From contig CM120643.1 of assembly GCA_051362555.1 (NCBI GenBank), forward strand, positions 6,820,001 to 6,884,000: a stretch of DNA of 64,000 nucleotides, written 5' to 3'. Origin of the DNA: Lingula anatina (lineage: Eukaryota; Animalia; Brachiopoda). The translations under genes were made by a program, and so were the position numbers. Positions 5,731 through 32,920 of the stretch are shown here, piece after piece; positions within the stretch are counted from its first letter, which is position 1; every line of letters begins with the position of its first letter. The notes under the pieces were generated by a model. That model was not told the origin of the DNA. It made no database searches and worked only from the letters and a program-made list of their open reading frames with translations.

Positions 5731-5989
5731 TGACTTGATATCTGTAAGATTCTGCAGGGAGAAATGGGAGACATGGCCTACTTTTTTACCTCTCAAAAAG
5801 TTTGCAATATACTTTGTCTTTCAGTGGTCCCCGATTCTTTAATATTACCAATGTTATCACTTTGAACCGCATAAAACACTTTTGGAAGTAAAAGCATCAT
5901 ATTAGAAACTATCACTACGCTTTCTTTTTATCATTTTATTTTTATTCATCTTAGTATTGCCACTGACATATCTACTAGTGCCTTAATTT

Positions 5990-6240
5990 AGGACTCATTC
6001 CCAATGACACTATTGATCTATGTAAATCGATCCAACTCCACAGGGACTCTTGCTGAATGCAATTGGATTGGCTCGCCTCCTTTTGTTTATAACATGCTTG
6101 TTTTCCATTTTCTACTCAAAACTAGGGGGTGGTATGCTAATCTCTTAATCTGATTACATTCAGCAAGAGTCCCCCTGAATTGATCTACCTAGACAGATAA
6201 AGCACTGAATGCACTCTTATTTTTATTGGGAGTGAGTTCT
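5990..6240. mobile_element. MITE with imperfect terminal inverted repeats (Harbinger-type)
   Basis: GGACTCATTCCCAAT ... ATTGGGAGTGAGTTC, with internal inverted GGGACTCTTGCTGAATG / CATTCAGCAAGAGTCCC. A copy lies at ~50340-50590. Confidence 0.6.
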
Positions 6241-7530
6241 TAGACCTAAATATTCTTACACAGTCATATAAATAAAACAACAACAACAACACACAATAAT
6301 AATATCATTTAATATTTATTTAAAATAAAAAGTTGGTTGGTACATTTATTATGTTGAAATGATAATTCTAAGAAAAACAAAGGTCAAATAAATGTTCAAG
6401 AAGTGCATTAAAATTGAAAGTTATGAATACAGTTGATGAAATCATATAATTACCTAACATAATATGTAAGATTGAAAAATAATGACACAAACTGCATTGT
6501 AGACTTTCAATTTAATTTTCAGGCTTACAAAACTGTATTTGTACAACATCTGCACAGTACTTTTTAATTACATTTGTGCATTAAAAAGTAAAGGTATATG
6601 AGTCTGAAATTTTCTTAGTATTTAATTTCTCTTTCTCCCTTCTCTTTATCTATGCCTCTCTACAATTTCAACCCCACTTTCTCTTAAATAAAAATTCTGC
6701 ACTAATGAGCTTAATTAAATAAATAAACATTCTTTGATTACAAACAGCTCCAGAATTACCAGGTGAGAATTTACTAGGTACCAGTACTTATAACAGGCAT
6801 TAACAATGTGATGATTCAGTCATCATTCTGACTTGCTTAATCCAGTATTGGTTTATTAGCACTACATGTACTTTAGGCAAGCTCAATAAATAACTTTGGA
6901 TATTTAAGATAAGAAAAAAATTGTCTTTTCATTCAATTTTATTTTTAAAAATCAACATAAAATTACAAAGTAAGCAACAAAAGTAATAATAAGTGCTTAT
7001 CTTTTATTAAGACTACTATGACATCACAACAGTACTGTACATATTAGTATAAAAGCTTCAATATATTTATTGCCAAAATTTGCTAAATTCTTTATTTTAA
7101 AGAAATATTAATGAAATGATTTCCTCCATATTACTTACACAAAATTGCTGCAGGCATCTTTTATACTACTGGCAAACCATAAGATGAGCACTAACATAAG
7201 ACTAGACAGCAAAGCTGGCAAAATATACAGACACAAAACACAAAACAAGGTGCAACAATAGAGTTAAATATATTTTTTTCTGTGACAGCACCGAATATGG
7301 GCCAAGGCCTATGGGTTTGCAAATTCACCAGTTTTACCATTAGTTATATAATAGCTTGTTTCAATACTTATAAAACTGTGCACACGTATTGGTAAAAATA
7401 GTCAAATCCTGTTAGTTTTTAACTCAAACAGCTTTTTTTTACTAAACAAAACCTCTCTGCATATTTGATGTAAAACAAAAACATGGTTTGGTATCTATGG
7501 TAAGACAGTCACCAAAATACTTGCAAAAAA

Positions 7531-7571
<41 letters not shown>

Positions 7572-7829
7572 GATATTTTAAAATTTTTTTACTCAGTCAA
7601 AGTGGGGGGAGGGGGGGGGGGGGTGCACCATGTTCAGAATGAACACCAGTGGATGTCTGGGGATGGCTACAGGAACATGGACCCTATCTCCTGATGTCAG
7701 GGAGGGAAAAAAATGGTTGGAGCCTGGTACACAAATCTTGACTGCATTGAGACAAATCATCTCCAACAAAAGATTTCAGGACATTATGTCAGGAACCTTG
7801 GTTACAGGCACTGCAAAACTTCTAGAACA

Positions 7830-8493
7830 CAGGATTGGGATGAGAAGATCTCCTTATTCCTCATGTCCTACCGCAGCTCACAACACGACAGCACTGGCTA
7901 AACCCCAAATCTAATGGTATTAGTTAGAAAAATTGATTTACCGGCCTATATTGTTTCTGGATGGCCATGTTACATGAGGTAGATAATTTTAATTTGGTGA
8001 TGATTTTCCACTTTTCAGTATTTACAACTAATGGGTGTGAATGAAAATTTTATACCATGTGAGACTCATGAATGATTGAAAAACTTGAGTAAAAGCCTAA
8101 ATAGATCCTATGAAATGGCTCGAGAAAAACTGAAAAGTGTGCAGAAATGTCAAAAAACAGTTGTATGATGCAAAGTTGAGAGAGAGTGAATATACTTGTG
8201 GTCAGAAGGTATATTTGAGGGATGAAAGTCATAAAAATTGAGAAAGTAAGAAACTTAGACCCTTATATAGAGGACCATATGATGTTATCAAAGCATCCCC
8301 ACCTCTCTATACAATTAAAGATAAAAAAGGAAAAATCCAGGTGGTACATCATGATAGATTGAGAAAATTTGTTGAAAGAGAGAGTGATTTTCAGTTGAAT
8401 GAACCACAATTGGTGGAACCAATTGTAAAAAGATCAAGATTTGGTAGACAAATTAAGATGCCATCTCATTTAAGAGATTTCGCCTTAGAATGA
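7830..8493 (+). pseudogene. Gypsy integrase C-terminus with GPY/F module
   Basis: QDWDEKISLFLMSYRSSQHDSTG; ...YEMAREKLKSVQK..LYDAKLRESEYTCGQKVYL...KKLRPLYRGPYDVIKASPPLYTIKDKKGKIQVVHHDRL...RSRFGRQIKMPSHLRDF. Contains stops and a frameshift. Confidence 0.88.
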
Positions 8494-8621
8494 TTATATT
8501 GATATATGTTTTGTTTATTAGTTAAGATATAATTGTATATAGATACTTCCTTAATTTTCGGCAGTGCTGAAATAAAAGGAACTTAATTTATTTATTTGTA
8601 TTTTTTATTTTTTTTTAGACC

Positions 8622-8915
8622 ATGGATGAATCAAACATATACAATATTCTCGCAGAGAAAGAGTATAATTGGTGCAGAAATTGGATCGAACAACCAAACA
8701 CTCTGCTCAACATATCAATTAACAATATAATACCACAAAATTTACCACAGTCCAGAATGTCAATGTACATGGGAACTCTACTTAATGAAAGAGTGCTATT
8801 AGAGAAAGGAATGGATTGGATGATTGAAAATATCTATTCATATCAAAACAATATAACGAAAGAAGAATGTGTAGATATCATACTTTACTTGAGAGATAAA
8901 TTGTATGGCTATTAA
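8622..8915 (+). CDS. 97-aa accessory ORF in the Gypsy 3' region, function unknown
   Basis: Open frame preceded by a polypyrimidine/AG acceptor (ttttttag|accATG) and followed by AATAAA. Confidence 0.4.
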   Translation: MDESNIYNILAEKEYNWCRNWIEQPNTLLNISINNIIPQNLPQSRMSMYMGTLLNERVLLEKGMDWMIENIYSYQNNITKEECVDIILYLRDKLYGY

Positions 8916-9685
8916 AAAAAATCCATAATAAAGATATATTTAATAAAGTATATTATAGTTTGTACTTCCTATTATATTTCAGGTAATTTGATCAAAACAA
9001 CAGTCCAAGTTGGTATAGGTTTTTTAAATATTTGTTTGAATTTTGTTGTTGAGCATAATACATTGAGCACTGCATGAATAGGTTGATAGCTACTTTTGTC
9101 TTTTTTGGATTATGGTTATTAAAAAAAAACAAGGCAGCAAAGCTGTCAAATGTACAGACAAAAAACAGAAAATAAAGATGCAAAATAGGTCATTTTGTCA
9201 ATTTTGATGCAATAATAAATAATGCTTATAACAGCACTGTCAGTCAACACTGAATTCTAATCATGCACAACAGGTACCATGGTCAATAACAGGAGCGAAC
9301 CCAGAGATATTTTCTGACAGTATTCCAAAGTATCTATGTTGATCCATCCCCCATTTTTATGGTCTTCCAACAGAAAAAAAATAGATACCAGTCAATATAA
9401 ACTTAATAATCTGACCGTCTTCTGGAAGACCCAGAAGATGGTCTCAATCCACCCCTTCAATAAGATTACAGTTTCAGGACCATGAGAGTTCAAATTCACA
9501 TGATGAAAGTCTCAATTTTTGAAAAATGATGACAGTGCATAAAATAATATTACATAATGTTTGAAGACATAAAAAACAATACAACTGCTTATGTGGAAAT
9601 ATAGAAAATGTGCAGAGCCTCAGGCGGATGAGAGTTAAAAGTCACAAATGCCAGTGTTTGAAAATTAAAAAGGAAAACATAACAA

Positions 9686-9922
9686 AACAAGAAAAGCACT
9701 CTGAGAGCGCAGACCTCTGCCTAGACAGCAATTGTTGATTATTATTGCTTATTGATTGATTATTGATCTGGACCACCAACACCAATAACTAATCATTGTC
9801 CTCCTTGCCCACTTCCAACAGTTCCTGAATATTTCATCAAAATCGATCCATAACTTTTTGAGTTATGTTGATGACAGACAAGCAGGGGTGAAAACATAAC
9901 CTCCTTGGCAGAGGTAAATATA
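9686..9922 (-). mobile_element. Non-autonomous Helentron/DINE-like element (HINE)
   Basis: Minus strand reads TTACCTCTGCCAAGGAGGTTATGTTTTCACC...GTCTGTC...GGCAGAGGT with a 3' hairpin GCGCTCTCAGAGTGC. Confidence 0.7.
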
Positions 9923-9961
9923 ATTCCAATGAAGCTGCTATTCAAACCTTTAATCTTCAAG

Positions 9962-9962
<1 letters not shown>

Positions 9963-10009
<47 letters not shown>
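9963..10009. repeat. (TA)n microsatellite
   Basis: Pure TA run. Confidence 0.95.
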
Positions 10010-10014
<5 letters not shown>

Positions 10015-10508
10015 TATTTGCAATATTAAACAAAATTTACCTGCATAATTATCACTGCTTCCTTATTATTAATCTAGCGGAGAGCTTAACCTTTGGGAGT
10101 TTACAGGGAAATATCAACAAGTGTGCTTTATGTAATCTCATTTAAAGACCTATTAATTAGGCAAATGATTTTATAACTCTGAAATTAGCTAAGTGATACC
10201 CAAGGGAAATACACAATATTACATAATGTTTAACAACATAATGACCATCAATTATTAATACTAAAATAGTAGTATCATGGATATTCAGAAAATGTGACTA
10301 GCAAAGGTCTTCAGGACCATGGAACTTCAAAGTCACATCTTGAAAATGCCAAAATGTAAACAAGACAGCTCTTTTCTGAAATGGGTTTATTTCCATTTTT
10401 GTAAAATTATGTTTATAATGTAATATGTTAATATTCATTTGAAAGAAAAGATCATTATCATGTATGTTCATTCAAGAAAATAAACCATTGTATTAGTTTA
10501 TTTCAGAT

Positions 10509-11177
10509 ATGGATGATCTAGACATGCTAGATGAAGCCTGTTTTGTCCCGGATTATGATGACACTGATTTGGTGGAAGATCCTACTGTCCTAATTGGTGA
10601 AGAGGGGAAGGAAGTTATCCACTCAAATTGCAGAAGGAAGAAACAGAGGAAAGAAGTTCAGTGTGGTTTGTGTCTGGTGTCCAGTGCTGACCTGAGCAGA
10701 CATCTTGGACGTCATGTGAAATCTGTTCATTTGCCATGGTATATGACTCCAGGATTGGTGTGCTGGTATTGCAGATCGATGGAGAAGGACAATTCGCTTT
10801 TGCGTAAACGTCATGGTGATGATCATTCGTATGGAACTGGTGAATTCGAGGAAAAACTGTGGATCCAATTGGTGAATGGATTTATACATTTCCTGATATT
10901 AACATTAAATATGAGAAATATATGGGAACTGATGGACTATGTGAAAAGTGAAGGACTAGTAATGTTGCCAGATAACTGTTCCAAGGAGGACATTGACTTT
11001 GTAAAAATATACATTTATGGAAATGGTATGGAGCCTAAGACTGAGATTCTGAATTCTTTGTTGACTTTGTTTCACTGGAAAACTTTGTATCATCTGTTAC
11101 AAAAACTTTCATCAGAGGATCGTGAACTCAGTAGTCATTGGTATCGGCGGATGGAATTTACTTTGCTATATGGATAA
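10509..11177 (+). CDS. 222-aa Cys/His-rich ORF resembling the N-terminal region of retroelement-associated TatD proteins
   Basis: CGLC...RHLGRHVKSVHLPWYMTPGLVCWYC...H...H...LVNGFIHFL...LFHWKTL; acceptor tttcag| at 10506; located just upstream of the PPT/LTR. The TatD link is recalled, not searched. Confidence 0.55.
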   Translation: MDDLDMLDEACFVPDYDDTDLVEDPTVLIGEEGKEVIHSNCRRKKQRKEVQCGLCLVSSADLSRHLGRHVKSVHLPWYMTPGLVCWYCRSMEKDNSLLRKRHGDDHSYGTGEFEEKLWIQLVNGFIHFLILTLNMRNIWELMDYVKSEGLVMLPDNCSKEDIDFVKIYIYGNGMEPKTEILNSLLTLFHWKTLYHLLQKLSSEDRELSSHWYRRMEFTLLYG

Positions 11178-11555
11178 AAAATGAACTATATAATGATTTG
11201 ACATTTCACACTGACATTGTTATCATTACTTATGTTGTTTTGAGCAACTTTGAGTTAAAATCACTTTGTTTGCTTTTAGAGTTGATTTAAAGTGATAATG
11301 GATTTAAAACTTTGTTTTGCATTCCTAAGGATGAACATTTATGCTGAGAGATGGACTTGATTGACTTTACTTGTGTTAAAGTTAAATGTTGAATCTTGGC
11401 ATAACAAGAATGAACTTAATTGCATTACTTGCTCATTTTAAAGGTAAAGTACGATTACATTTGTTAAATTATAGTAATTGTTAGTTTAACAATTTAAAGT
11501 AATGGTTTATATTGTAATAATAGGGGGGAGTTTTGTTCGACAAAAGGGGGGAGAG

Positions 11556-11916
11556 TGTGACGATGTAGTGTGTTAGATGAGATTATTTTATATTGCTACC
11601 GGTAGATGTCTCTATAAGTAAAGTGTTACACAGTGCAAGTTTGAATCTCTCTTGTGATTAGTAACCTAAAGGTAAAACTGTTCACTGTATAGTTGGTTCT
11701 GATTGGTAAACGTGTACTATCTGAACTTGTATATAAGGTCCGACTTGAAATAAATCGGTCTCTTTGTTGGGACTTTTGGCTCTAGCCTCTGTGTTCTTGG
11801 CTCTTTTGGTCCTCTTTGCGGCTCTCTTTGGCTCTTTACTGCTCTTAACTCTGAGATACCAGTAAGTACATTGTTATTTGTACCTTCATAAGGCACTCGG
11901 CCGTGAAGGCGTAACA
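11556..11916 (+). mobile_element. 3' LTR (361 bp)
   Basis: Follows the PPT; TG...CA ends with a 6/7 terminal inverted match (TGTGACG/CGTAACA); TATATAAG at ~11730 and AATAAA at ~11748. Confidence 0.8.
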
Positions 11917-12467
11917 GCATGACTGACGTTGGAAGGCAGCTTGATGTCAATATGGAGAATATATAAGTACCTATGTTGATAACATCATATTATTGCTATC
12001 GTCTGTTATTTGGTACAATCATTTTTACAAGGCTTTTACTGGTTTCCTTCAAAGGGACAACAGTATTTAAATGAACAGTATAGGCCAATTCCGTTCATTA
12101 TTGGAAAGTCTCCGAGGTTGGTAAGACAAAATTGAATGATGAGCACAAGAAAATGATAAGAATAGGAGCCATTGGAAAACAAAAAAGCGTTCAAAAAAGC
12201 TGTTCACCAACAGACTAAGTCCACGTCGTAGAAGTGAAATAGATGGAAATGTGATGATTATTTTTGTAGCTGATTTGAAGTAGCAATCTGTCCCCCAACA
12301 AAATGATTTAGTTCATGTAGAAGTGAATAGACAGAAACACGCTGATCATTTTTTTAAAAATGTTTTTGCAGCAGATTTGCAGTAGTAACCTATTCCCCAA
12401 CAAAATAACTAAGTTCACGTAGTAGTATAGTGGTATTAATTAAGTTATTCATGAACATTTCTCTTGC

Positions 12468-12682
12468 ACCCCATTCTCATAGATTAGATCGACCTACATT
12501 GGATCGACCTAACTCCCTGGGGGTTCACGCTAAATAGCTGTCAGCCGGGCGGACACGAAAGTTAATTACCCCTTAAAGCTTGTAGTAGGCGGGGACGGAC
12601 ACTTAAGGGAGATTATCTGACAGTAATCTAGTGAGACTCCCCGCGGTGATAGATCGATCTAAAAGTTGTGAGAACAGAGCCT
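12468..12682. mobile_element. MITE, probably related to 5990-6240
   Basis: CCCCATTCTCATAGATTAGATCGA ... TAGATCGATCTAAAAGTTGTGAGAACAGAG imperfect inverted ends. Confidence 0.45.
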
Positions 12683-12887
12683 TGGATTACTGCTTATCAT
12701 TACGGCACAAATGTTACATACCACCTTGCATGATATTAGGTAGTTCTGCATAAAAAAAAGAATACAGAATATTTATATAGGCCAAATTATATTATGGTGA
12801 TGACATAGAAGTCACTTTTCTTACAGCTAAGGACAAATAATATTCATTTTGCATTACAAATCTAGCTCAACGTCATGCACTTGCAAG

Positions 12888-15986: not shown

Positions 15987-16714
15987 TAAGATACACTCCT
16001 CTTGGCCTCTGGTTTGGGGCTGTGAAACAATCTCTTTGCGAGTACATGTCTTACAACATAAGATTTATTTGTTTTACTTAGTATTTTGGTACAAAAAATA
16101 CATAGCATTTTTATTTTCTTGATTTGTAGGCACACAGAAGTGCTTGGGATAATCTCTTAGCTTGTTTTGGACTGAGAAGAGGCTCTGGTAAGTTAATAGC
16201 TTTTCTAGTCTAACAAGCGCTTTGAAGGAGGTAATACTGTATGTTTTAACTAACAGTTGATACTCATCTTATTGTAAACGTTTTAAATGTTGTAACTGCA
16301 CCTTACCAAGCTGTATACTTTACCTGGGCAGGCCTGCAAGCTGTAGTTACAGCTGGAATTCACATTCATCATGTTGGATCACATTGGGTTGTATCTGCAA
16401 GTTTTAGAACTTGTGTATGGCTCTCTAACTCCAAGAATGACACAGGGATATGAACATAAAGAAATACCACAATTACAGGTCCTAGAACCAGATGGAACCC
16501 TCATGGACACAAAAAAATTTAAGAAGGACCTAGAAAAGTGTAAAATGGAACTGACCCAGGATAACACACAGATTTTTAGATGATGGGGTAATTTTTTTAA
16601 ATCAAGAGAAGACTACAAGTCTTCATTTCCTCTACCTCCCACTGTTGAATCTACATGTAAGTTATCATATACACCATTGAATTTCATAAATAAGCATTGG
16701 TCATTTAACAGATT

Positions 16715-17090
16715 TTTACCATCTTCATTTGCCAAAGGACCCACGTATATTAAAGAAAACAACTACCCAATATGACATTATAAGTAAATGTGGTGGAGAA
16801 TTCAGTGCATATCTGACAATTTTGTTCTTAGCCTCGAAATAAATGTAGATGGGCTACCTCTGTACTAGTCATAATTTCTGGCCTATAATGGGGAGAACTG
16901 TAAATATTCCTAACCAAAACAGTAAGCCTTTTATCATTGCATTATATTTAGGCACAGCAAAGCCCAATGATATCAATGAATATTTTCATAATTTTATTGA
17001 TGAATTTAAACAAATTCAGGGAGGTTTCCCCTGTCATGGGAAACGTTTATTTATTGCTATCCTTTCATTCATTTGTGATACACCTGGACT
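16715..17090 (+). pseudogene. EnSpm/CMC-type transposase fragment (N-terminal catalytic region)
   Basis: LPKDPR..; LEINVDGLPL / FWPIMGR...PFIIALYLGTAKPNDINEYFHNFIDEF...ILSFICDTP. Confidence 0.8.
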
Positions 17091-17119
17091 TGCCTCTTCC
17101 AAATTCCTGTCATGGGGCT

Positions 17120-17374
17120 GATGGTGCACTGTGTGAAGAGATGTATTCTCCACAGAGACAAGTTGGTGGTCAGGATTGTGGCCTATTTGCTACTGCAACA
17201 GCTGTGTGTTTAGCTAACAAGGTTGACCTGTATGACATTGTTTTCAGTCAAGAGCAGATGAGAATTCGAAGACACTTGTATGAGAGTTTTTGTAGGGGGA
17301 AAATGGTAATGTTTCCATGTGAGGTTAAGACCCAATCAGTAAAGGTGACATATATAACTATATCAAAAAAGTAG
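17120..17374 (+). pseudogene. Ulp1/C48 cysteine protease C-terminal fragment (transposon cargo)
   Basis: PQRQVGGQDCGLFATATAVCLA...FSQEQMR..HLYESF....MFP. Confidence 0.75.
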
Positions 17375-17714
17375 TTTTACAATCACTACATGGTTTTAAA
17401 ATAAAATAAAATAAATACAGGTAGACCTCTAAACAACTTATCTTAGGACCTAATATAATATTTTGGCATTTATTTTAAGACAAGTGTGACATTAATGTTG
17501 AAAAAGATGTCCTAACTGACCCTGCTGTTAAAATTGCCAATAGAAACCCATCACTGGCACTGGACATTGAGAAAATTCTAAATGACAATATCCCTGGGTC
17601 TAGTGGACAGCCAGTCTTCCTGACAAAGTGGCCAGAAGCAGAAGTAATTTCAAGCAAGAAAGCCTCAGTTATTGCTGTATCTATAATGAAAGTTGTGTGC
17701 TGTTATGCTAGTTT

Positions 17715-17850
17715 CAAGGTGCTAATTTCCGACCAAGGGCGCGAATTCCGTAACCAAGTATACGAGAGATTATGTCAGCAACTTGGCATTGATCATCATG
17801 GTACAACAGCCTGCCACCCCCAGGTGAATGGACAATGTGAAAGCTACAAC
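17715..17850 (+). pseudogene. Ginger/Gypsy-type integrase core fragment
   Basis: VLISDQGREFRNQVYERLCQQLGIDHHGTTACHPQVNGQCESYN. Confidence 0.85.
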
Positions 17851-19947: not shown

Positions 19948-20035
19948 GATATGGCTTTGTGGTTAGAGTGTCTGCCTCCAGAGCGGGAGGGTTCAACCCT
20001 GTCCAGGCACATACCAGTCCTTTATAAATGGTAAT
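19948..20035 (+). mobile_element. tRNA-derived SINE 5' fragment
   Basis: TGGCTTTGTGGTTAGAGTGTCTGCCTCC...GGTTCAACCC...CATACCAG..TTTATAAATGGTA. Confidence 0.55.
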
Positions 20036-20850: not shown

Positions 20851-21565
20851 GTAATATTTCTTACTAATATATTTCCTACATCTAAAGAATCACCAAGAAA
20901 TAATAAGCATTTGTTTACTATACCACCTACATTTGTAGTTTGTTTGTGTTACATCTATTAGCACATTATTTATGAGAATTACCCTATTGTATGACATATT
21001 CCAGGTGTTAGATTTTAACATGACATTAACAATTTCCTGTAATCATTGTAGCTAATGAACCTCTAGTGGCTGCAGAGTACAGAAATAAATTGAATTTATT
21101 AATATATATCATTTACTCTTTAAAAATTATATATTTTGGTTACTCTTTCTTCTTATTTAGACTTATTTAAAAACCCTTTTAACACTTATACCATTACTAT
21201 GTATGAAGGCAGTGTTTCTAAAATAAGTAAGATGCTGAAGTTGAATAAAATTCAAATCTGAAGATAAACTAAATTTTTCAGCTTGGGGGAGTTGGGGGAA
21301 TACGATATAGTCGTGCCAGGAGAGGAAGAAACCAGTCATCTGAGAGAGGAACTGGAAGGTACTCTATTAATATCAGTAATCTTAAGGCCTATTTTTTACA
21401 GGCACAGATCATTTTTATTACTAATATTTTAACACATTTTTTTTTGTTAGCAAAATAAATGTTTTGTGTATCTGTTTTTTTTTATAAGAAGTCCTAGACA
21501 GGTACAACCAAGAAAGGCAACAAAGATACAAGTACAAATTTTTAAATATTATTTCATCTTGCATA

Positions 21566-21850
21566 ATGAAGAATGATTTGGAAAAAGCAAGGTACCATTT
21601 TATAAAATTTAATATAGGCCTATACAAACTATATGGGGAGAGGTATTTTACCTTTAATGCACATTGTTTATTGCATTTAGTCTCAAAAGTCAAAGATTTG
21701 GGGCCACTGTGGGCACACAGCTCTTTTTGTTTACGAAAACTTAAATGGTGACCTGAGAAAACAATTTCATGGAACCCAGCAGGTAGAATTGCAAATAGTC
21801 ACAGTGGTGTACATTCAACAAAAATTACCAGAGCTAATTGAACAAGTAAA
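21566..21850 (+). pseudogene. EnSpm/CMC-type transposase C-terminal fragment
   Basis: LYGERYFTFNAHCLLHLVSKVKDLGPLWAHSSF / YENLNGDLRKQFHGTQQVELQI. Confidence 0.82.
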
Positions 21851-21989
21851 GGATGGTACTGTGTAGGCCCTGGTGCAGCAGATGACTTAATGGCCAAGTT
21901 TGAAATTTTCAGGCAGGATAGGTAATTCCTCTCATATCCTGTTCCAACCACGCAAGGGTTGTTACAGTTAAAAGTGAAATCTAAGGGGC

Positions 21990-22250: not shown

Positions 22251-22838
22251 GAAAGCTAACACGTGTTTCCCTACATTACGCCAAAGGCTTTGTTTGTCTG
22301 CAGATAAATGTGATCACATTCTTGGCTGATTGAGGCAACGTTTGAAAGAGCAACCAATTAACTTACAGACCATGGCGCACCGTGGTAGAAAATGAAGAAG
22401 AAAAGCAGACAATTATCAAACATATGCACAGTGACATTGAGTGAAATTTACAGATATTACTATTCTTTTACAACCTTTGGATTTATATTACTGTGAATGG
22501 AGTGTTAGTGATATGCATATACTGATATTACAATGTACTTCCAGGTGCTTTGTGCTTTCTTGTTGGGAAATGTTGTATGAAAATACAACATTTCCCAACA
22601 AGAAAGCACAAAGCACAGTCCTTATAATTACTATTTAATGTTTGGCACATAAGTAAATGATAAAGTAGACCCCATTTTAAAGTAACATCAAGTAAACTAT
22701 TGTCCTCACTCTCTGAAATACAAGTGGTGTTTAATTCTGAACACTAAGTCCCATATTATAATATTGCCCTATTGAAATGGTCCGTATGATAATCATGTTT
22801 TTGGTTGGTTTTAATGCCATTTCATTTTGAATTGTCAG

Positions 22839-24221
22839 GTGGGGAGCACCAAAAAGGCTCCTGTCAGACCAAGGAAGAGAGTTTGTGGCTGAAATAAATA
22901 CAGAGGTTTGCCGCTCCCTCAGCATAGAGAGGTCTGTGACAAGTGCCTATCATCCTCAGACCAATGGTCTGGATGAGAGAACAAACCAGACACTGAAGAC
23001 TCAAATGAGCAAGCTCATTAATGAACACCAGATCGACTGGGATACTTATTTGGAGGATGTGGTGTATTTGATCAGGACACAAAAGCAAACGTCCACAAAG
23101 TTCACCCCTTTTTTTCTTATGTTTGGGAGGCACCCTAGGTCTCTGAAGGAGGTAATTCTAGATTAAAATTTTTAATGATTTAGACAAGATAAAATTTGGA
23201 ACATTTTTATTATGATTTTCTGACATCTCAGTAATAGGTTTGTTACATCACTGAAATTGTGTTTGAAAAGCAGTCTATGTGCAGCCAAAATGTGTATTAA
23301 CTATGATATGCTTTGGTCTTGTCATTTATATCAAACCTATTTAATCTTTTATATCATGTAGACCTTTTTTTGATTATCAGTTATTTCTATACTGTATATG
23401 CTTAAATGGCTGCACTACAAATATTTTATTTACCTACCTATTTTTCATTCATCTGATTATTTTACTTAACAGGCTGTCTGCTAGTCATGCTACTGATCCT
23501 GTCTTTATCTTAAATGAAGTAGGAAGCATGAAACATTGCTCCTGTGTTAAAAAAAATAACATGATGAATTTTAAAGAGGTTTTCTAATTTCAATTGTGAT
23601 TTCCATTTTTAGATGATTGCCAAAGTACTGAAGTTCTGGAAGACATGGTCAACCATAGAGAGGCACTGTTAGATGTCACCAATAAAGTTGTAAGTACAAA
23701 GACACACATAATGTGCTTCATTAAAGGGTTCTAGCATGTTACAGTTGTATCAAAATTGTATTTGAATATGAAATACTCTTCTTGTTTTATGACTGCCTAT
23801 AGGTGTTATATTTGTGTCTCTAATAAGCAACTGTGCATTCATTACTAGGACATAGTACATGTATTTTAATGTACAGACACCGTGTACGTAGCCATCACCT
23901 GCCTCTGTCATGGTGCACTTTTTTTCATTGTTACTTCACTAACCTAAATACTGATATAGCTTTTTGCCTCAAAGTTATTAGTTAATTTGATGCCTGTATA
24001 TGTGCCATCTTCACTGTCTATATTTTTCTTATGTGTTTTTCTTAGGTACAAGAGAATGTGGAAAAGGCCCAAACAAAACAGAAGGAGAATTTTGCAAAGA
24101 GAAAGGCAAATGGCGTCAAATCCTTTGACCTTTCAGTTGGAGACATGGTCATGAAAAGGGCTATGAAAAACATTGGAAGGAAGGGAGGAAAAATGGAGCA
24201 TCTGTGGACTGGGCCTTATCG
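22839..24221 (+). pseudogene. Ginger1 (GIN1-like) intron-containing integrase/transposase fragment
   Basis: Exons 22839-23151 (WGAPKRLLSDQGREF...SAYHPQTNGLDERTNQTL...TPFFLMFGRHP), ~23613-23690 and 24046-24221 (NVEKAQTKQK...VGDMV...RKGGKMEHLWTGPY), joined by GT-AG introns. Confidence 0.88.
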
Positions 24222-25629
24222 GTATGTATTTCTGCCAGAACTTTTCTTTTAATGAGTTACTTGCTGCTCTTGATACTGTACACGTGATTTGTGATTTCTA
24301 ATACTTCCACCATAATACATGTACATCTTAACACAACAAAACAATAATTCAATATCTCAGAAGTAGAGGGGAAGATGTCTCTTGTCCAGAGCACAGTGGA
24401 GTCTGCACAGCCAATCTACGAGAAGACGACACCATTGGGGACAAGCTTAACCACTGATGGGGATCGACAGCCGAGCCCAGCTGCATGTGACAATGTTGAA
24501 ATTTTTTGGGACACATGACACTTTACCAAAGCTCTGAAAAAACAAATAGAAAAAGCACCATTTTCTGGTCAAGTGTTTCCAGGAAAAACAAAATACACTA
24601 GAGACAAAATGCAAAAACGTTTTGCTCAGTGCATAGCAATATGTGCTGCTATTCTGAATTTGATGCTTGCTTTAGAGCAAATCAAGGGAACATAGAGTTG
24701 ACTAAAAGAGCACTGAGTTATGTCATTTACTATATATAATTAGTTGTTACAGTGTTGATTGTCAAAATTGTTTAAAGTACTCAAAAAAATGTAAAACCTT
24801 AAGGTGGCTCAGAAACTATTTTCCCTGTTTTTCCATCTTTCTCCAGGAGGCTCTGGCCTGGGAAGCAAAGCAGAAGATTTTTTCAAGGCACATGGAACTT
24901 ACAATATTCGCTCTGGCACCCAACCAACACTTAGTGCCAATCCTGATATCCTAGAACAAGTCTGGGCTCTGCTCCTTTCTATGAAAGCAAAGACGAAGAT
25001 AGTCACCTCAATCAAGGTGAAATGCCCAACAGTAGCTATCCTAAAACGCCTTTAGTAAACCTGGACACTGTTCACAATGATGAAAGAAGAAAAAGCCTAA
25101 GTCCTTTGGTACCAGTGGGCATTACCTCCACATTGAAACAGGCAGATACACTAACACTCCTCAGCCCTACAGAATATCTTCTAAAGACAAAATTGAAGAT
25201 GAAAAACTTTCTCCCAACATGCCCTCTATACAACAAACCTGTAACCATATATTGTACCAGGTATTTACAGAACACTATACACACTTTGGCCTCAGAACAA
25301 TTGATGAAAAATTTATTATCATTATTGTAACATGTATATATATGAGGTTGCGTATGTATGATTGTGGTTGTGTTAGTGTAGAGTAGTGTGTTTGTGCCTT
25401 TTCGTTTGTGTTCGTGCGTCTCTGTTTCTTTATATAACATGCCCCTATTTCTTACATGGCACGTTCGTTTCTGGTTTCTGCCACGTCAACTTACAGGTGA
25501 GATAGACTTGATTGGTTTGCTTTTAATTTTCTTTGTGTTAAAATTTTATAATTCTTTAAGATATTTTGTTTGATATTTTCAGTGCTTGTAATTTCTTTTC
25601 ATCCTTATTTTGTTTAGAAGTTTAGTTTA

Positions 25630-25840
25630 ATCAACCTTCTGACTAGCAAACCTTTGGAACAGCTGGGACATCATCAAACTATCAGACCAATGAACCTTCT
25701 GACTATTGAACCTTTTGAACCATTGGATCTTGGCAACATCAAACTATCAGACCAATGAACCTTCTGACTATTGAACCTTTTGAATCATTGGATCTGGGTA
25801 TCATCAAACTATCAGACCAATGAACCTTCTGACTACTGTC
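25630..25840 (+). repeat. Tandem repeat with 65-bp period (about 3 copies, ~16-bp subunits)
   Basis: CATCAAACTATCAGACC at 25672, 25737 and 25802. Confidence 0.88.
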
Positions 25841-26649
25841 ATGCAATTGACAAATAATTTAACAATGAACTAATAATAATTTCATAAATTCACAAGATGA
25901 CAATATTTAGTAATTAAAATAAATATCAGAATCAGAAATTACTTGAATTTGATATACTCAGGAAATACTGCAGCATCATATCCAAACTGCTAACGATAAC
26001 AAAACAATATCATAAAATAATCAAATCATACAGAGTTTCTAGAGGAATTCAAAACAAAAATACAGTTTACCAGTTTTAGGGTAAACAACAGATGTGTCAC
26101 AAAGTGCTGACTATGGCAATGACACTGGGCAGACACAGTGATCAGAATATAGACAGACTGAATGTGTCTGTATATAATAAATATGTGATAAAATTTGCAA
26201 TTGCACCTTAATGACCTCACAATAACAGAGATCATCTATAACACATGATATCTGCATTGAAATATATATTCACTTTTAAACATTTTCACTGGTGCCCTTT
26301 TCTCTTCAGTGACAGCTTATTGTCTACCAAAATCTCACTGTATATGCTACCTCTACTAGTACTGTAACAGTTTCCATGCATATGGGGAAAATTAATATAA
26401 CACATCACAACTGAGCTGAAATATATCAATTTTAAACATTTCCAATGTGTCTATTCGTCTTCAGTGATAGAGTATTGTCCAAAACAATCTCCTTGCTTTA
26501 TATACCCTGCCTCTATAGTTTTCATGCATATGGGGGAAAATTGATTCTTTGTGTTACCTGGAACGCACAGTTGTTGTGTAATTGTACTGTTCCATATAAC
26601 TGGCTCCACAGGATCTGCCATGTTTGGAAGTCTTGTTCTGGGTGGTTCT

Positions 26650-26735
26650 GGCAGCACTCTCTCTCACTCAGTATAAAATTGACCTCTTGGTCTGCCAGCA
26701 GCTCTTTACACAATTCCAGAAGTGTATTTGCTAAA
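26650..26735 (-). pseudogene. P-element/THAP9-like transposase C-terminal sliver
   Basis: NTLLELCKELLADQEVNFILSER resembles the segment preceding the xQDxLExxF motif; an acceptor lies upstream. Confidence 0.45.
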
Positions 26736-27280
26736 AACATAAATAAAATGAGTGTAACTGTTTGCAATGCAATTGAATCATCTCTGTAATATAGTGCAAA
26801 CTATTATTAGGAACCATCTAATGATACATTATTCATATGTAGGATGCTTTTGTAGGATGCACAAGATCATTTTTGCATCACCATACTTAATATTTATATC
26901 TTGATAATGCTCACATGTAATGATGATCAAATTAAAATATAGGGATTCATTTATGTGTTTTGTGTGTACAAGATGAATTGGTTCAAATTCTTAACAAATG
27001 ACAAGAAATATTCATTTATATGTTTTGTGCATATAAGATTAATGGTTTAAACTAAACAAATGCATTAGTAACAAATGAGAGATGTGGGTTGAAAATGGCA
27101 TCAGTGACTATAAAGCTGGGGTGCACATTACAATTAAAAGTTTGTTTTAAATAAACATGTGTGGACGATTATAATAAATCATATTTTTCAAGTCATGTTG
27201 GTCACGAAATCCAAAAAATAAAAAACTGTGATAATTGGTGTTTGGATCTCTACAAAGATAAGAAAGAGGACCAATTATAC

Positions 27281-28221
27281 CAGGCCTTCCCAACTACCAG
27301 ACTCGGCACCTACGGGTCCAGAATAAACCGGTATATCTGACCACACTACCCGTTTTCAAGGTGTGTGTCAGATCGCATAAAAGAGTATCATACCCTTTCA
27401 CAAATTCTGTAAGCCTACCTGTCATCCGGGTATCGCGCCTCGTTTTCGTCAGGTAGGAGTCGTATGAATACAACAGACGACTCCCTCAATCAGGGGGTGG
27501 AAACGCGCTACTTATATGATTAAGACGAGCCTAGCCGTCAGTACCGGTTATTGTTTTGTGACCTTGAGGAGCAATTAGGTTTGGTCGTTGCGGCACGCAT
27601 GAACAGTTGTTGAACTACCACACCTGGGTCTTTTGTTTTTGACGACTGTTCACGACTACAGGCTGATATCTACTAGTACTACCAGTGGCTTCATTAGTAA
27701 CGTTCCCACGTCCAATACTTAAGTTTTCTGTCCGTGCATACAAACCCTGAAAAAGGACAGCCTCGCTGACGAGAACAATAGACGTTTCTCACCCCTCTCT
27801 AGGATTACCCCTGCCCTCAATCTCGTCCATCCCGGTAGTCATGAAAATAATTTAACACAGAATATGCTTCTGCTATCAAAATTAAGTCTACTTTTCTAAA
27901 TTAATATATAAGTTTGCAAGTTCTTATTTACAAAACATCATTGGCTATGTCCGAACCTAAATTTTATGTTAAAAATTGCGGTACTGTCAGATTTTAGTAT
28001 AAACAGAGAAAATTGCAGCAGCGCATGAATCTAGATGAGATGCACTACTTTCCAACCCCGCTTAGGATCATTGCTATCACATCGCGCACCAGGCAAAATC
28101 GGTGTGGTGGCTGATACCCTGTAATGCGATCTGACACACACCTTGAAAACGGGTAGTGTGGTCTGATAAACCGGTTTATACTGGACCCGTAGGTGCCGAG
28201 TCTGGTAGTTGGGAAGGCCTG
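27281..28221. mobile_element. Non-autonomous DNA transposon with ~110-bp TIRs, CAGG termini and an apparent 5-bp TSD (TATAC)
   Basis: CAGGCCTTCCCAACTACCAGACTCGGCACCTACGGGTCCAG... is the reverse complement of ...CTGGACCCGTAGGTGCCGAGTCTGGTAGTTGGGAAGGCCTG. TATAC lies at 27276-27280 and 28222-28226. Confidence 0.9.
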
Positions 28222-29324
28222 TATACCCACTGTTACTTGAAAAAGAAAAACCAACTGTTCATTTTGTGTACTACCTGCAAGAAGTCCAGTTACCCGTTTA
28301 CCATGGCTGTCCTGTCTCTGGCTCTTCACAACTCATTCATCCTTAAACTTTCTGTGTCTTCCACAACTGTGTGAGATGAAGGGATATTCCTGCAGCTGTT
28401 ATTTCCTGTCTATTTTCATATTAAAAATGCATGTCTCTCATGTCCAGCCAGGTAAAGTCTGTTCATCTAGAAGACACCATGCTGTATGGAGACTGGAGCT
28501 GGAAAAAGAGACAAAAGATTATATGAATGAAGTGACATAAATTATCTTAATAAAAAGACAAAACCCTGACAGTGCACAAGAAACAGCAGAATATTAAACC
28601 TACAATATACTGCCCAATGTCTACTAAATATGGCAGACATCACAGTTGTAGTGACTGAACAGAGAAAAGTTTAAATGTCTTTTGGAGGCTGCTGGGCGCA
28701 ATTGTGACTGGTGCAACTGTCACAATCGCAGATTGAACACAGTTAAATAAACAGAACTGCCAAATCTGTGGGAATTATTGTGATATCTGCACACAAATTG
28801 CCTATAAACAATGGCTGTAATAATCTGGGATAAGTATATCAGTTGACTGTGCCTTGTTAAAGTACATTTTGTAAAGAGTAACATAAGAAAAGTGAAAAAA
28901 ACTATTTAAATTTAAAGGAAACACAAAATATGATGACTGGTTTGTTGATCTACAATGGAAGGATAGAAGACCAATTATCTATTGTAACACAACTAGTAAA
29001 ACAAAACCAAGCAATAATGTGTTCTACAAGGAGGTGTTTTTGGCATGGTGATGGGTGACGGTGGGTAATGACCACTGCTCCGCCTTGGGTCCAATACATA
29101 TCATCCCAAACTGACCACATCAAGCAGGCCACTACAGAGAAACATGACCCTGTACAACAGCTGTCAAACTGTGTGTGAACTAGAAAAAAAGAAAAGCATT
29201 CATTATAAACATTCAACCACTAATGATCAGAAGCTAAAAAATATCAGAATACACAGATGGGGAAAGGTAGCAGACTTTCACTTTACTGTATCCGCCAGAA
29301 GATACTCTGTTATCAGACAAGGCC

Positions 29325-30481
29325 TTCCCAGGCCACGACCTAATCACCCAGTTTAATGCGAGCGTGCATTGCAATTTGGGTTATATTCAAATAGAAGGGC
29401 GCAACATACCAATGCAACAAATCGAGTTGCGTGCACAAGACATAAAGATAGCCCAGGTTAGCGTGTCAAGAAATGTGGTAGTACCCCTAAATTCAGCACT
29501 TAGGATAACGAGCGAGATCGACGAAAAGTTGGAAAAATACGTCGTTGAAGGTAAAGAAGAAGAGGGACTACTAATACCGAGAACTGTCTTGTCTGAAAAT
29601 TCAAAACCAGTCGTGTGCCTCGTAAACCCATCTGATCAATACAAAAAATTAAAAAATTTAAGAAGAGGGACTACTAATACCGAGAACTGTCTTGTCTGAA
29701 AATTCAAAACCAGTCGTGTGTCTCGTAAACCCATCTGATCAATACAAAAAATTAAAAAGGGGTCATGTAGTCGCTATGGCTTGCGAAGTTTTGGAAATTT
29801 GAGAAAACCCTGTTTTGCACTTTGGTTTACAACGAGTGGGAGGGGGGTCTACTATAATTGATCAATCCAGCGCTCGTGTTGTCAGTACTATTGATGAGAC
29901 AATGACTACCGATCTACTGGTGGGATTACCTGAAATTACGCATGTAAAATCAGCCGTCCCTAAAACCGGAAGGGATTCTACAACACACTTGTGGGATTCA
30001 ATTTACCAGTGGAGGATTCAATTTACCCTCCTATAACTGGTAAAATCCCTAGAACAAGTGTGCACCCAAACAGGACAAAACTTGTGGTATTAAATTCTAC
30101 AAGGGTTTGTGGTGTTAATTCCCCTAATTCGTAGAATATCCCTAAAACAAGTACCCGATTTAAAAATGACACAAAAAGTAAACAACCTCTGAAGGTGGGT
30201 GGAAGTACTCAGGGCCCTTTAAGTGCCCCATCTGCCGGAAAGGGGTTAGTTGAAGAAAAATTTAACACCGAAATTTTCAAGTCACTTGTAAAGGGGTCAC
30301 CTCAGGCGCGGAATTTTCAACAAATCGCTGGTGAAGTTCACGCCGGACTAGATTCTTCTGGATGCGTCGCTAGCAAAACATCAGAAATTCCTGATCATGT
30401 AAAAGTGGTTTGTGAAACATCTAAGGGGAATTTAAACAAAATTCAGAGGGAAAAATTAAAGAATATTCTATCTGAATTTCA
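29325..30481 (+). pseudogene. Gypsy pol fragment: end of protease and protease-RT spacer
   Basis: GHDLITQFNASVHCNLGYIQIEG...VSVSRNVVVPLNS...GLLIPRTV...VCLVNPSD...LKRGHVVA; EIPDHVKVVCETSKGNLNKIQREKLKNILSEF just before RT. Contains a 103-bp tandem duplication at ~29557-29758. Confidence 0.75.
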
Positions 30482-31262
30482 GATAGAACCCTGGCTGCCT
30501 TTGGTCTTCCATACTCTGGCAAGTTAGAGGGTCTTAAGGGTTTGCTTCCTGTTTGCTCTGTGAAAGAGGTAGAGTTGGTGGGGATTGTAGCTATTTACTG
30601 CGATCCCAAGACATATTCCACTAAGGGGTATCTTTCCACTTTGTCTGGGGACGAGTATGTAGCTATTGGTTTTCACCCTAGGCTGGCCAGCAAGCTTTCT
30701 CAGGGCAATCTGGACTTTCGCAGAGTTGGTTAAGATGCTGCTAGTAAAAGCTTTTGGTGAGGTAGGTTTCGACCACACTGAAGCCATGTCTAAATGGCAG
30801 GATCAGGTTGAGTTGCTTCACAGACTGCTGCCTTTTCTAGAGGCCAGGCATGTCCTGGTTGTGCACTGTAGGGGAGTGAGGGGAGATTCTGGAGTTCTCC
30901 ATAAGGTCACTTTTGTTTCACCTGAAACTGTGTGGCGTTCTGCAGTCCCAGAGGATTCATTTTCACTCCTTTACAGGCACATAGTAGCTTAATGAAATTT
31001 GGGGAAAGCAGCAACCAAACACCCTTTTTGGTTTTACTCGTGTTGCTGCCACCTTTAATAAAAACCAACTAGCAGCACTTAGGGCAGTACCTGACTCTAA
31101 ACATTTTTTGGAATCTGATGCTTCCTATTTTGCTTGAAAAAAAGGAACCCTTTCTACACCCTTTACAATCTATGAAACTGCAGAGGTTCTGGAGGGGCAC
31201 AGAGGGGTGGAAGCAGCTCACATTTTAAAAATCACAACTAAAAATGGTACTTCCTTATATAA
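30482..31262 (+). pseudogene. TatD-family DNase pseudogene fused to the Gypsy fragment
   Basis: VAIYCDP...VAIGFHP; AFGEVGFDHT; HVLVVHCRG; PNTLFGFT; FLESDASYF; GTSLY. The TatD motifs are in order, frameshifted and intronless. Confidence 0.85.
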
Positions 31263-31539
31263 AAGGGAGTAACCAGGGATCTGGAAATATATATATATAC
31301 ATGATGAAACTTCTTTAACTTTGGGCAATTCTAAAAAACTATGAAAACTTCTTGGCACTGAATTTAAAAAGAAAAATTCATATTTCCCTGAAGCCCCTCT
31401 CCTCCTCCTGATCTGGGAGTTCATCGGAAATATGAAAGTTACCATCAATATTTACAATATTCATTTATTTATTTGATTATCATTCATTATTTATTTGTAT
31501 ATATTATTTTATAGATACACTGATGCACCTGCAGCAGCA

Positions 31540-31665
31540 CGTATATGTATCACTTGTCATGCATTATACACATGTATATATATGTGTATATATATACATA
31601 TATATATATACACATATATATATACATGTGTATATGTATATGTATATATACATGTATATGTGTAT
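31540..31665. repeat. Degenerate (TA/CA/TG)n microsatellite
   Basis: Alternating purine-pyrimidine tract. Confidence 0.9.
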
Positions 31666-32650
31666 TTCAATATCAGTAGCACTTATTGCATCATTGTGCA
31701 TTCTATTGCAGGAAGCAATACAGCACCTTAGCACCAGTTTGTTACTAGGTACAGTGTACCAGCACAAGTATTTATTTCTATTTTAAATATTATTTATTTA
31801 GAATTTTGGTCTATCACCAAATCCTACATGAAGAAATGTCCCAAACTTTTAAAATTTCTTTTTTTTTTTTTTTTGGCTTTCCAGTATTTATATTTGTGGA
31901 TAGACTATCACTGTATCACTGTCAGTGATATGACTAACTGCTAAATCAACAGTTGTCAAAGTTAATCCTATATTTTTTTTCTCGACAGACTATCACATAT
32001 GTTAGAAATAAGGAACATTTTATTAAAGCTGCAATAAGCTCGTATCTGTTGTTTGATATTAAATATATTGTACACATTTCATGCAGTAAAGTTTGCATAT
32101 GGTCTTCTTATGCAGCTTGAAGAGGGTATTTTGTACTATCAAAGAGAAAGAACACCAACTAATGTAGAAGTTGGTAAAAAAAAAAAAAAACGGTGTGGGG
32201 AGAGTGGAGAAAGGTAGTAGAAGATGAGGAGGAAATGACCACCATACAGCAGCTGCACAATTGAAACTGTTAAAAATCGACTTACAATAAATAAATGTTA
32301 GTTTTTTACTTATGTCTGACAGAAGATCGTGTCAAACCCTAAAATGCCCCAACTTCAAAATGCAAATTTCTTAAAATAACATAAGCGCATATATAACAGT
32401 CTTTAACTCTTACTCCATTATGGTTTACACTTGTTGATAAATAGTGTTATAATATTGTATTATAATATGATCATTTTTCTATTAAACATATGCTTTAATA
32501 CAAAATTTCTATTTTACAGAACACTGCCAGAAGAGACGAAGATGAACCACAGCCATTTACTAGTGGAATAAATGAAAATTAACCCATTAAGTCAGATTGA
32601 ATAAAATTGATTGTCATACCGGTACCAGATCGCTACAAAAAAGTACTCAC

Positions 32651-32920
32651 CCTTCTGTCATCAAGAATGTCTTTGCATGCATTTAAAAGGATGCCAAAAC
32701 CGTGGAATGTCTTACTGCTTCAGATGAAACTTGAATGGTAGCTCATAAATATGTCTTGTCCTTGGTATAAAGCTATTTCATACAAACGTGTAAAAATGTT
32801 CCCGCTGCGCAGAACTAAGCCCGACTAAGTAGGTCAACGAAAACCCGCAGTGAATACTGGGTCACATCTCGGCACATCCGGTCACACGAAGCGCGCCGCA
32901 GTTTTACTCTGCGTCCAAGT
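32651..32920 (-). promoter_or_regulatory. Candidate CpG-rich promoter and non-coding first exon, oriented leftwards
   Basis: Abrupt CpG-rich patch at 32800-32915; ETS-like CCGGATGT on the minus strand; strong donor AGG|GTGAGTA at 32651/32650; no ORF. Confidence 0.4.

Follow-up and report, generated by a model that had tools for sequence, protein, structure and literature searches.

A spliced minus-strand transcript antisense to a tandemly duplicated transposon mosaic in Lingula anatina, a candidate uni-strand piRNA precursor

The Drosophila locus flamenco and the flam-like clusters, sources of PIWI-interacting RNAs (piRNAs), are expressed in the ovary's somatic follicle cells. As described in one account, flamenco has a constant first exon and introns of 0.7-158 kb, and its splicing precedes processing (PMC4120762), and in a survey of flam-like clusters the strand bias is described as Gypsy-driven, with flam-syntenic loci quoted at 227-1085 kb (PMC10643416). 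Here we analyze a 64-kb stretch of 35% GC animal DNA from the brachiopod Lingula anatina (contig CM120643.1, positions 6,820,001 to 6,884,000; hereafter the window), in which a spliced minus-strand RNA runs against a mosaic of transposon pieces that has been duplicated in tandem. With flamenco and the flam-like clusters, as those sources portray them, the locus shares a discrete promoter, a single transcribed strand, a constant first exon with alternative splicing, and nested remnants antisense to the RNA; unlike them, it has units of ~30 kb composed mostly of DNA transposons together with pieces of long interspersed nuclear elements (LINEs) and long-terminal-repeat (LTR) elements, a CpG-depleted body, and tandem copies. 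The term 'flamenco-like', used in an original prediction made from the sequence of this window, therefore holds for the layout and fails for membership, flam-like clusters being defined by a Gypsy-specific bias in the survey quoted (PMC10643416). Because the bias here spans Harbinger, Tc1, hAT, Sola-like, Ulp1-bearing, Ginger-type and LINE pieces, with one clear Gypsy-type element in unit A, and because the locus is far smaller, we do not count it as a member of the flam family. We think it probable that the locus is a uni-strand piRNA precursor, and hence a predicted source of antisense guides.

Minus-strand RNA and the polarity of the transposon pieces

We mapped six (X1-X5 and X7) of the nine RNA-sequencing runs available under the species label, with X1 and X2 sampled at ~6% of each. 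Over 13.6-33.5 kb, the interval to which X1 and X2 were mapped, first mates fell on the plus strand nearly everywhere, the exception being a dispersed element with terminal inverted repeats (TIRs) at 27.3-28.2 kb. Introns at 29179-32651 and 2957-3517 read CT..AC on the plus strand, so the RNA is a minus-strand transcript whatever the library type. The original prediction had a minus-strand precursor starting near 32.85 kb, and the stranded reads bear this out: depth is 7-8 in the bin 32192-32855, ends at 32855, and is 0-0.01 in 32856-33500. A single donor (32651/32652) joins three acceptors at 29179, 28496/7 (~28498) and 26730, an arrangement of one first exon spliced to alternative acceptors. 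Depth is highest in 26216-26879 (141-144), where RNA 3' ends pile up at 26294 (29 and 31 molecules) near an AATAAG at 26321, likely a polyadenylation (polyA) site. A weaker extension of the main exon (depth 15-23 in 24888-26215) reaches ~25.0 kb and ends at either a polyA site or a donor, with a donor-like site at 25006. Another donor-like site, at 25125, was rejected since most reads carry a different base there.

The region 2.5-14.5 kb, examined in four runs (X1, X2, X3 and X5 among them), contains two distal exons, which are known from their own junction; their join to the first exon was not seen in the reads. Between them and the main exon, the signal over 14.3-24.9 kb is 96-98% minus-strand (bin depth sums of 9.28 vs 0.36 in X1 and 10.36 vs 0.17 in X2) and covers 13/16 and 14/16 bins. 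The expected minus-strand RNA is thus present; that it forms one long precursor is only weakly shown, because most of the steady-state polyA RNA is a short product of the 5' end, and the DNA-transposon mosaic has ~3% of its depth. One antisense LINE piece (25084) lies inside the abundant exon, and the mosaic is otherwise at ~0.6x depth. The longest ATG-initiated frame is 56 amino acids (aa) in the three short spliced forms and 109 aa in the long one, and we found no conserved open reading frame (ORF) in the spliced forms tested. Separately, the signal at 8.9-10.5 and 12.1-12.9 kb comes mostly from dispersed repeats: short elements at 8916-10519 and 12467-12683 have high RNA depth in 4/4 runs, from reads that continue into other sequence. 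The stretch from ORF 10509 to the LTR has a low signal on both strands.

To establish the direction of the transposon pieces we scanned stop-to-stop frames of both strands against Pfam: 302 frames from 5.7-33 kb (154 plus, 148 minus), 125 of the 131 frames from 50-64 kb (six TA-repeat frames were excluded), and, as a local control, 139 frames from 33-44.3 kb and 1-5.7 kb. At the reporting threshold for transposon-type families (expectation value E<1e-3), such families appeared on the plus strand alone and in the two units alone. Unit A contained Integrase_p58_C (8242), rve (17479), Myb_DNA-bind_5 (18490), rve (22831) and TatD (30663), and unit B contained a Tc1 HTH (58335) with DDE_3 (59299), rve (62388) and hAT dimerisation (63385), whereas the control frames yielded 0/139. 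The two minus-strand matches at this threshold, DUF2921 (54146) and Cyclin_N (55520), are non-transposon families below their own cut-offs. Pfam's cut-off was passed by Myb and hAT only (neighbours of the Tc1 PAX-like match aside); the remaining matches fall below it, as would be expected of short fragments.

Homology searches extended this list. A phmmer query with one plus frame of 16250-19450 returned 100 proteins, 30 of which were scanned against Pfam, in three groups: Ulp1-type proteases (several within MULE-SWIM-PHD proteins), transposases of a family for which Pfam has no model, and Myb/SANT proteins. We searched both strands of the window with this protein set and with 366 long frames taken from 80 fetched integrase loci, which added Ulp1 (16304 and 16979-17371), a Sola-like piece (17810-18234), a second Myb (20468), a Gypsy-type integrase (7734-8382) and a Ginger-type exon (24046), all on the plus strand. 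Matches on the minus strand comprised a weak one at 7675 (E 0.009), one outside the units at 47951 (E 8e-4), and antisense shadows of the integrase frames.

With the Gypsy pieces merged into one element, our tools oriented nine elements in unit A (Gypsy-type, Ulp1, integrase core, Sola-like, Harbinger-Myb, second Myb, Ginger-type, LINE and TatD) and five found only in unit B (LINE, Myb, Tc1, RecQ-bearing TIR element and hAT), the second Myb and the RecQ relic being the weak members. All 14 are on the plus strand (p=1.2e-4 at 50:50), as are 14/15 when a P-like sliver is entered as an exception (p=1e-3) and 7/7 in the Pfam-only two-strand subset (p=0.016). All 14 also lie inside the 41 kb of the two bodies, and the spacer and flank, 17 kb in total, hold none (p=0.008). 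The plus-strand mosaic placed by the original prediction at 5750-32920 is therefore real, and its orientation bias survived the fuller annotation under which it might have vanished. The minus-strand P-like sliver near 26.7 kb, the one possible exception, fared differently: our searches for homologues were blank and the label lacks homology support. Taken together, three traits of a unistrand cluster occur here side by side, namely RNA of one strand from a discrete start, a spliced constant first exon, and remnants that are enriched and antisense, with the enrichment measured against a local control and the reads coming from diverged alleles or copies.

Tandem copies and insertions after duplication

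The original prediction did not include a tandem paralogue, unit B, nor the LINE piece at 25084 or the exons beyond 5750. In a self-alignment of the window, 1-7.8 kb has its counterpart at 44.3-53.8 kb, and 18.3-23.7 kb is partly repeated at 57.3-63.3 kb, at 79-95% identity; self-tblastx gave noise only. The units are ~30 kb each (the mosaic of unit A being ~27 kb) and differ by ~7-8% substitutions and by inserts totalling many kilobases. Because the repeat takes in at least 5.7 kb of ordinary non-mosaic flank, and because no inverted repeat joining the ends of the unit was found in the self-alignment, we interpret it as a tandem segmental duplication and not a bounded element.

Two insertions distinguish the copies in an informative way. 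A Harbinger-type element fills a site in unit A that is empty in unit B (57535), and a LINE fills a site in unit B that is empty in unit A (7631-7640), and both elements are antisense to the transcript. Their target duplications, together with the empty sites in the opposite copy, indicate separate transposition into each copy after the duplication, with the same polarity each time. Because one element entered each copy after duplication, and both are antisense, the mosaic is better described as a trap than as the cargo of a giant transposon. Paired empty sites were assessed for these two elements, with the Tc1, hAT, third Myb and RecQ elements outside the comparison.

The bodies also differ from their surroundings in CpG content. 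With an observed/expected ratio (o/e) of 0.38 for 5750-32600 and 0.33 for 50.1-64 kb, they fall below both the spacer (0.91) and 1-4280 (0.80), a contrast with p=6e-7 over 26 vs 15 bins; the ratio climbs to 0.96-1.27 over 32.5-33.1 kb. Transitions at CpG between the copies affect 24/39 sites in the body vs 30/102 in the flank (p=8e-4), while GpC sites used as a control are alike (35/151 vs 38/141). This CpG loss points to a transcription unit methylated in the germ line; in annelids, methylation is described as concentrated in gene bodies with promoters unmethylated (PMC11292947). Bordering each CpG-depleted body is a CpG-rich nest (4280-5730 and 48430-50079) in which 390-base repeats, some direct and some inverted, form a foldback-like structure.

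Most labels of the original prediction were upheld (Gypsy integrase, Ulp1, integrase core, Sola-like, both Mybs, Ginger and TatD at 30663), and the motif-based ones of two EnSpm pieces, a BEN piece, a Gypsy protease spacer and a TatD-type ORF at 10509 were not: homologue searches were blank for EnSpm and BEN, and the frames of the stretch resembling a spacer between Gypsy protease and reverse transcriptase (RT) matched no family. The Gypsy-type element has an integrase half (tblastn E 2e-7; Integrase_p58_C E 3.6e-4), a polypurine tract, TG..CA ends, a TATA motif and an AATAAA-like signal; its frame at 7695, compared with solved structures, gave one unrelated match (E 1). ORF 10509 is zinc-finger-like, its searches giving unnamed clusters and weak zinc-finger leads. 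Its first 51 aa (10509-10661) are 86% alike to the N terminus of the Lingula anatina gene model P0101, which has a VWD-type Pfam domain; the likeness may reflect a dispersed copy serving as a first exon or, alternatively, a gene-model artefact. A Ginger source, and not a MULE one, is possible for the Ulp1 piece, because at one fetched locus (L020:10675-11790) a Ulp1-type frame that matches it directly follows an integrase match in a Ginger-type layout.

We take the Sola-like piece to be such from motifs in its full-length relatives. The 1.19-kb Harbinger-type element (Myb_DNA-bind_5 E 2.7e-5, inverted arms) combines a Myb/SANT gene, TIRs and a 3-bp target duplication, presumably the hallmarks of non-autonomous PIF/Harbinger elements. 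At an equivalent position of the two copies (20395-21095 and 58146-60811) lie different Myb/SANT exons, both on the plus strand, which may mark either a repeated target or an old exchange. The Ginger/Gypsy-type integrase is 63-65% identical to a second fetched locus (L001), and its exon at 24046 matches a third (L032, E 2e-9). Because the Myb and integrase fragments keep their introns, they arrived as DNA. The LINE fragment at 25084 is 55% identical over 29 aa to the unit-B LINE, and RNA depth there is 30-51 (at 25125). For the TatD fragment, comparison with viral contigs gave one 23-residue match, and the literature searched held nothing on TatD together with Gypsy LTR elements. In unit B, the RecQ relic has weak domain support (DEAD E 0.052, WRN E 0.022) within a TIR element that we assume to be Academ-like, and the primer-binding-site-like motif is presumably of the tRNA-Lys type. 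Coordinates are collected in Table 1.

Table 1. Coordinates, strand and supporting evidence for features of the window.
Feature	Coordinates	Strand	Evidence
Unit A body	5750-32600	-	CpG o/e 0.38; low-level minus-strand RNA over 14.3-24.9 kb
Unit B (tandem paralogue)	44296-64000	-	Self-alignment; flank at 44.3-50.1 kb, then CpG-depleted body (starting at 50.1 kb, past window end); transcribed strand predicted
CpG-rich promoter-like segment	32500-32950	-	o/e 0.96-1.27 (400-base windows from 32500, 32750); 0.13-0.48 from 31500-32000
First exon	32651-32855	-	GT donor 32650-32649; start probably ~32.8-32.85 kb
Alternative exon	29028-29179	-	Canonical acceptor 29179; left end approximate; joint to 32651 in 8 (X1) and 13 (X2) reads
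Alternative exon	28297-28499	-	Acceptor ~28498; joints 28496/28497-32651 (21, 25 reads) and 26729/26732-28296
Main downstream exon	25000-26730	-	Acceptor 26730; P-like sliver (label unconfirmed) at its start
Two distal spliced exons	2600-3616 (3517-3616; 2957 to ~2600)	-	Joint 2957-3517, CT..AC, in X1, X2, X3, not X5
Broken Gypsy-type LTR retrotransposon	7640-11917	+	Integrase C-half 7734-8490; ORFs 8619 and 10509; polypurine tract; LTR 11556-11917
Ulp1-type protease, two parts	16304-17371	+	Best relatives are MULE-SWIM-Ulp1-PHD proteins
EnSpm-like piece between Ulp1 parts	~16830-17110		By motif, unconfirmed
Integrase core fragment	17479-17850	+	rve E 3.8e-5; tblastn E 5e-20
Transposase fragment, Sola-like	17810-18234	+	phmmer best E 3.5e-12; relatives without Pfam family
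Complete non-autonomous Harbinger-type element, 1.19 kb	18590-19777	+	Intron-split Myb gene, TIRs, CAG target duplication; missing from unit B
Second Myb/SANT fragment	20468-20850	+	tblastn E 0.005, weak
EnSpm-like C-terminal piece	21560-21863	+	By motif, unconfirmed; common to unit B
Ginger/Gypsy-type integrase, intron-split	22777-24234	+	First part common to unit B; rve E 8.3e-5
LINE C-terminal fragment	25084-25260	+	Antisense within polyA-covered exon
Young non-coding TIR element	27276-28225	.	110-nt arms; dispersed; reads on both strands; many reads skip it
Gypsy protease-RT spacer-like stretch	29289-30500	+	By motif, unconfirmed; open frames 29271, 30135
TatD nuclease fragment	30530-30989	+	In first intron; TatD_DNase E 3.3e-4
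5'-truncated LINE, unit B only	52911-53681	+	AATAAA, (ATG)n tail, 10-bp target duplication (9/10 alike); zf-RVT E 0.038
LTR end, then primer-binding-site-like motif	55350-55400	+	By sequence; outside element count
Third Myb exon, unit B only	58136-58252	+	tblastn E 4e-7
Full-length decayed Tc1-type element, unit B only	58319-59689	+	Perfect 28-nt TIRs; HTH_28 E 3e-5, DDE_3 E 2.7e-4
TIR element with RecQ-helicase relic, unit B only	59850-60543	+	102-nt arms; tblastn E 8e-5
hAT transposase C terminus, unit B only	63385-63930	+	Dimer_Tnp_hAT E 2.9e-5; tblastn E 4e-6

Elsewhere in the window, the inter-unit spacer holds a U4 spliceosomal RNA gene (38683-38822, minus strand; 121.5 bits, full model), which may repeat with the tandem unit, and a long palindrome (40084-40255) that encloses a 36-base tandem repeat and is a possible hairpin RNA or foldback remnant. 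By eye, short stretches at 170-560 and 44460-44830 resemble the heads of tRNA-derived short interspersed nuclear elements, and no tRNA gene was called in the window.

Proposed mechanism and rival explanations

In the interpretation we favour, a promoter near 32.85 kb drives a spliced minus-strand RNA, which lacks a long reading frame, through opposite-facing transposon pieces. If this RNA is a piRNA precursor, its antisense pieces would direct PIWI proteins to DNA transposons, LINEs and LTR elements. Insertions could enter the transcribed body in either direction; antisense ones would be retained by selection as guide sources, and deletions would trim them to fragments. Long or alternatively spliced isoforms bearing the mosaic may be exported and quickly cut into piRNAs, and we propose that the polyA depth of the mosaic is low because these long isoforms are consumed fast. 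Duplication would then let the two copies carry different memories. More tentatively, and with less confidence than we place in the precursor itself, we suggest a superfamily-blind antisense trap: a compact, spliced, gene-body-methylated piRNA gene, amplified in tandem, whose copies and alleles each gain different antisense insertions. If this were true, the immune memory of the genome would diversify like a multigene family, and the promoter-driven uni-strand design would reach far outside flies, freed from Gypsy. Because empty and filled sites are paired between the tandem copies, the trap model is testable, predicting anti-Harbinger piRNAs from unit A only and anti-LINE and anti-Tc1 piRNAs from unit B only.

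Several observations weigh against a precursor of this kind. The mean polyA depth of the mosaic (0.58 and 0.65 over 14.3-24.9 kb, whereas the exons next to it have 15-23 and the peak 141-144) is at an intron-like level, the abundant signal stops at ~25.0 kb at the donor-like site without a polyA hexamer, and the distal exons at 3.5 and 2.9 kb are as deep as the 25-kb exon (53 vs 51 in X1, 37 vs 30 in X2). Because of this donor-like end and the similar depth of the distal exons, one 21-kb intron may contain most of the fragments. In flies, according to one study, an antisense piece has to be in the cytoplasmic transcript to yield piRNAs (PMC13226689), which would count against our interpretation if the mosaic is intronic. 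Locus-specific signal was found in 3/6 runs, all from one study, and X4, X5 and X7, from two other studies, had none, which tissue or population could account for. Most reads are 95-99% alike to the window, with fixed differences and joints skipping inserts; since just 302/2225 (X1) and 336/2149 (X2) reach 99% similarity and inserts are passed over at many joints, what is expressed is an allele or copy other than the one in the window. On the minus strand the U fraction is only 0.334, compared with 0.318 for the spacer. The polarity test itself weakens with stronger intronic baselines (p=0.018 for 14/14 and 0.08 for 14/15 at 3:1; p=0.044 and 0.17 at 4:1), some homology searches were seeded from plus frames, and the fragment labels are mostly under Pfam cut-offs.

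Many of these points would be explained if the locus were a conventional gene for a spliced long non-coding RNA, one of whose introns is very large and methylated. Insertions would then be tolerated owing to the methylation of the gene body, and sense ones purged since their splice and polyA signals truncate the transcript, with no need for piRNAs. We regard this explanation as unlikely overall, although it is the strongest competitor. In addition to the low, even depth over the mosaic, the donor-like site and the distal exons, it draws on the P-like sliver, the sole candidate (and unconfirmed) sense piece: the main exon takes its acceptor from that piece, which shows that splicing at this locus is indeed captured by sense pieces. 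In mammals, LTR and LINE elements within introns are known to be biased towards the antisense direction, as reported in PMC3088655, and intronic transposons of the annelid Owenia accompany higher gene-body methylation in the account given in PMC11292947. Yet the bias at this locus is complete and spans several kinds of DNA transposon, with p=0.004 (14/14) and p=0.02 (14/15) at a 2:1 intronic baseline. Purging should also have depleted AATAAA on the transcribed strand, whereas the strands have 16 vs 16 over 14.3-24.9 kb, and counts of splice and polyA motifs showed no strand asymmetry. Finally, the explanation requires the distal exons to matter, yet these lack coding constraint. If no piRNAs arise here, the locus shows how one-sided a plain methylated intron can get in an invertebrate, a limit that bears on all sequence-only cluster predictions.

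We consider it very improbable that the RNA encodes a small protein, with the first exon joined to the 3.5- and 2.9-kb exons in a hand-derived frame of ~80 codons and the mosaic as its intron. The distal exons are open in one frame through their observed junction, and exon 3517-3616 differs at only 2/100 bases between the copies, but 9/9 codon changes between the copies are non-synonymous and a stop is lost, the frame matches no Pfam family, and the required junction to the first exon is the one missing from the reads. Similarly hard to sustain is a neutral transposon graveyard, or an assembly artefact in which two haplotypes were joined in tandem, with the polarity arising by chance or from biased recognition: part of the annotation was indeed seeded from plus frames, but the two-strand scans yield the same polarity, its direction agrees with the independently measured RNA strand, the copies differ by the substitutions and kilobases of inserts given above, and even a haplotype join would leave the unit A result intact. 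The least credible alternative, a giant cargo-carrying transposon (Helitron- or Pack-type) that captured fragments one way and of which the second unit is another copy, was raised in the original prediction and is largely refuted: two related units within 64 kb and several fragments adjoining without visible termini would suit it, but the repeat runs through the non-mosaic flank as in a segmental duplication, the unit ends are not linked by an inverted repeat, two inserts each have a target duplication and a matching empty site in the opposite copy, and fragment introns are kept.

Relation to described piRNA clusters

The piRNA pathway is reported to be conserved in almost all lophotrochozoans (PMC11114477), and the annelid Capitella is described as being without large piRNA clusters (PMC8915122). 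We found no brachiopod piRNA cluster in the open-licence literature, supplementary cluster tables being outside its scope. Among other non-insect animals, piRNA clusters of Lymnaea and Crassostrea are reported to show enrichment of DNA transposons (Kolobok, hAT, Dada, Polinton) as well as Gypsy (PMC6128900), and 402/457 Nematostella clusters are given as unistranded (PMC5731801). The Lingula locus resembles these in being non-insect and, as in the molluscs, rich in DNA transposons; unlike them, it is defined by sequence and RNA reads, whereas those clusters are defined by small-RNA reads. For individual mollusc or Nematostella loci, the text of these sources that we examined does not give the direction of the fragments, a promoter or any splicing, and the word 'strand' is absent from the main text of the mollusc paper (PMC6128900).

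Antisense elements within a methylated transcription unit also recall the intronic transposons of mammals (PMC3088655) and Owenia (PMC11292947), as those reports describe them; the mammalian bias, however, concerns LTR and LINE elements with DNA transposons excluded and is partial, whereas the bias in Lingula is complete. With the extended trap model, as outlined in PMC13226689, the locus shares a transcript that runs from a host promoter through antisense transposon sequence and whose major isoform is short, a long one being rarer. There, a single insertion lies in the 3' untranslated region of a protein-coding gene, whereas in Lingula many insertions lie in an apparently non-coding gene, many of them perhaps in an intron. 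Strictly antisense, promoter-driven uni-strand clusters have been documented mainly in flies, where they are Gypsy-specific; what this locus adds is a measured antisense spliced transcript together with paired filled and empty sites.

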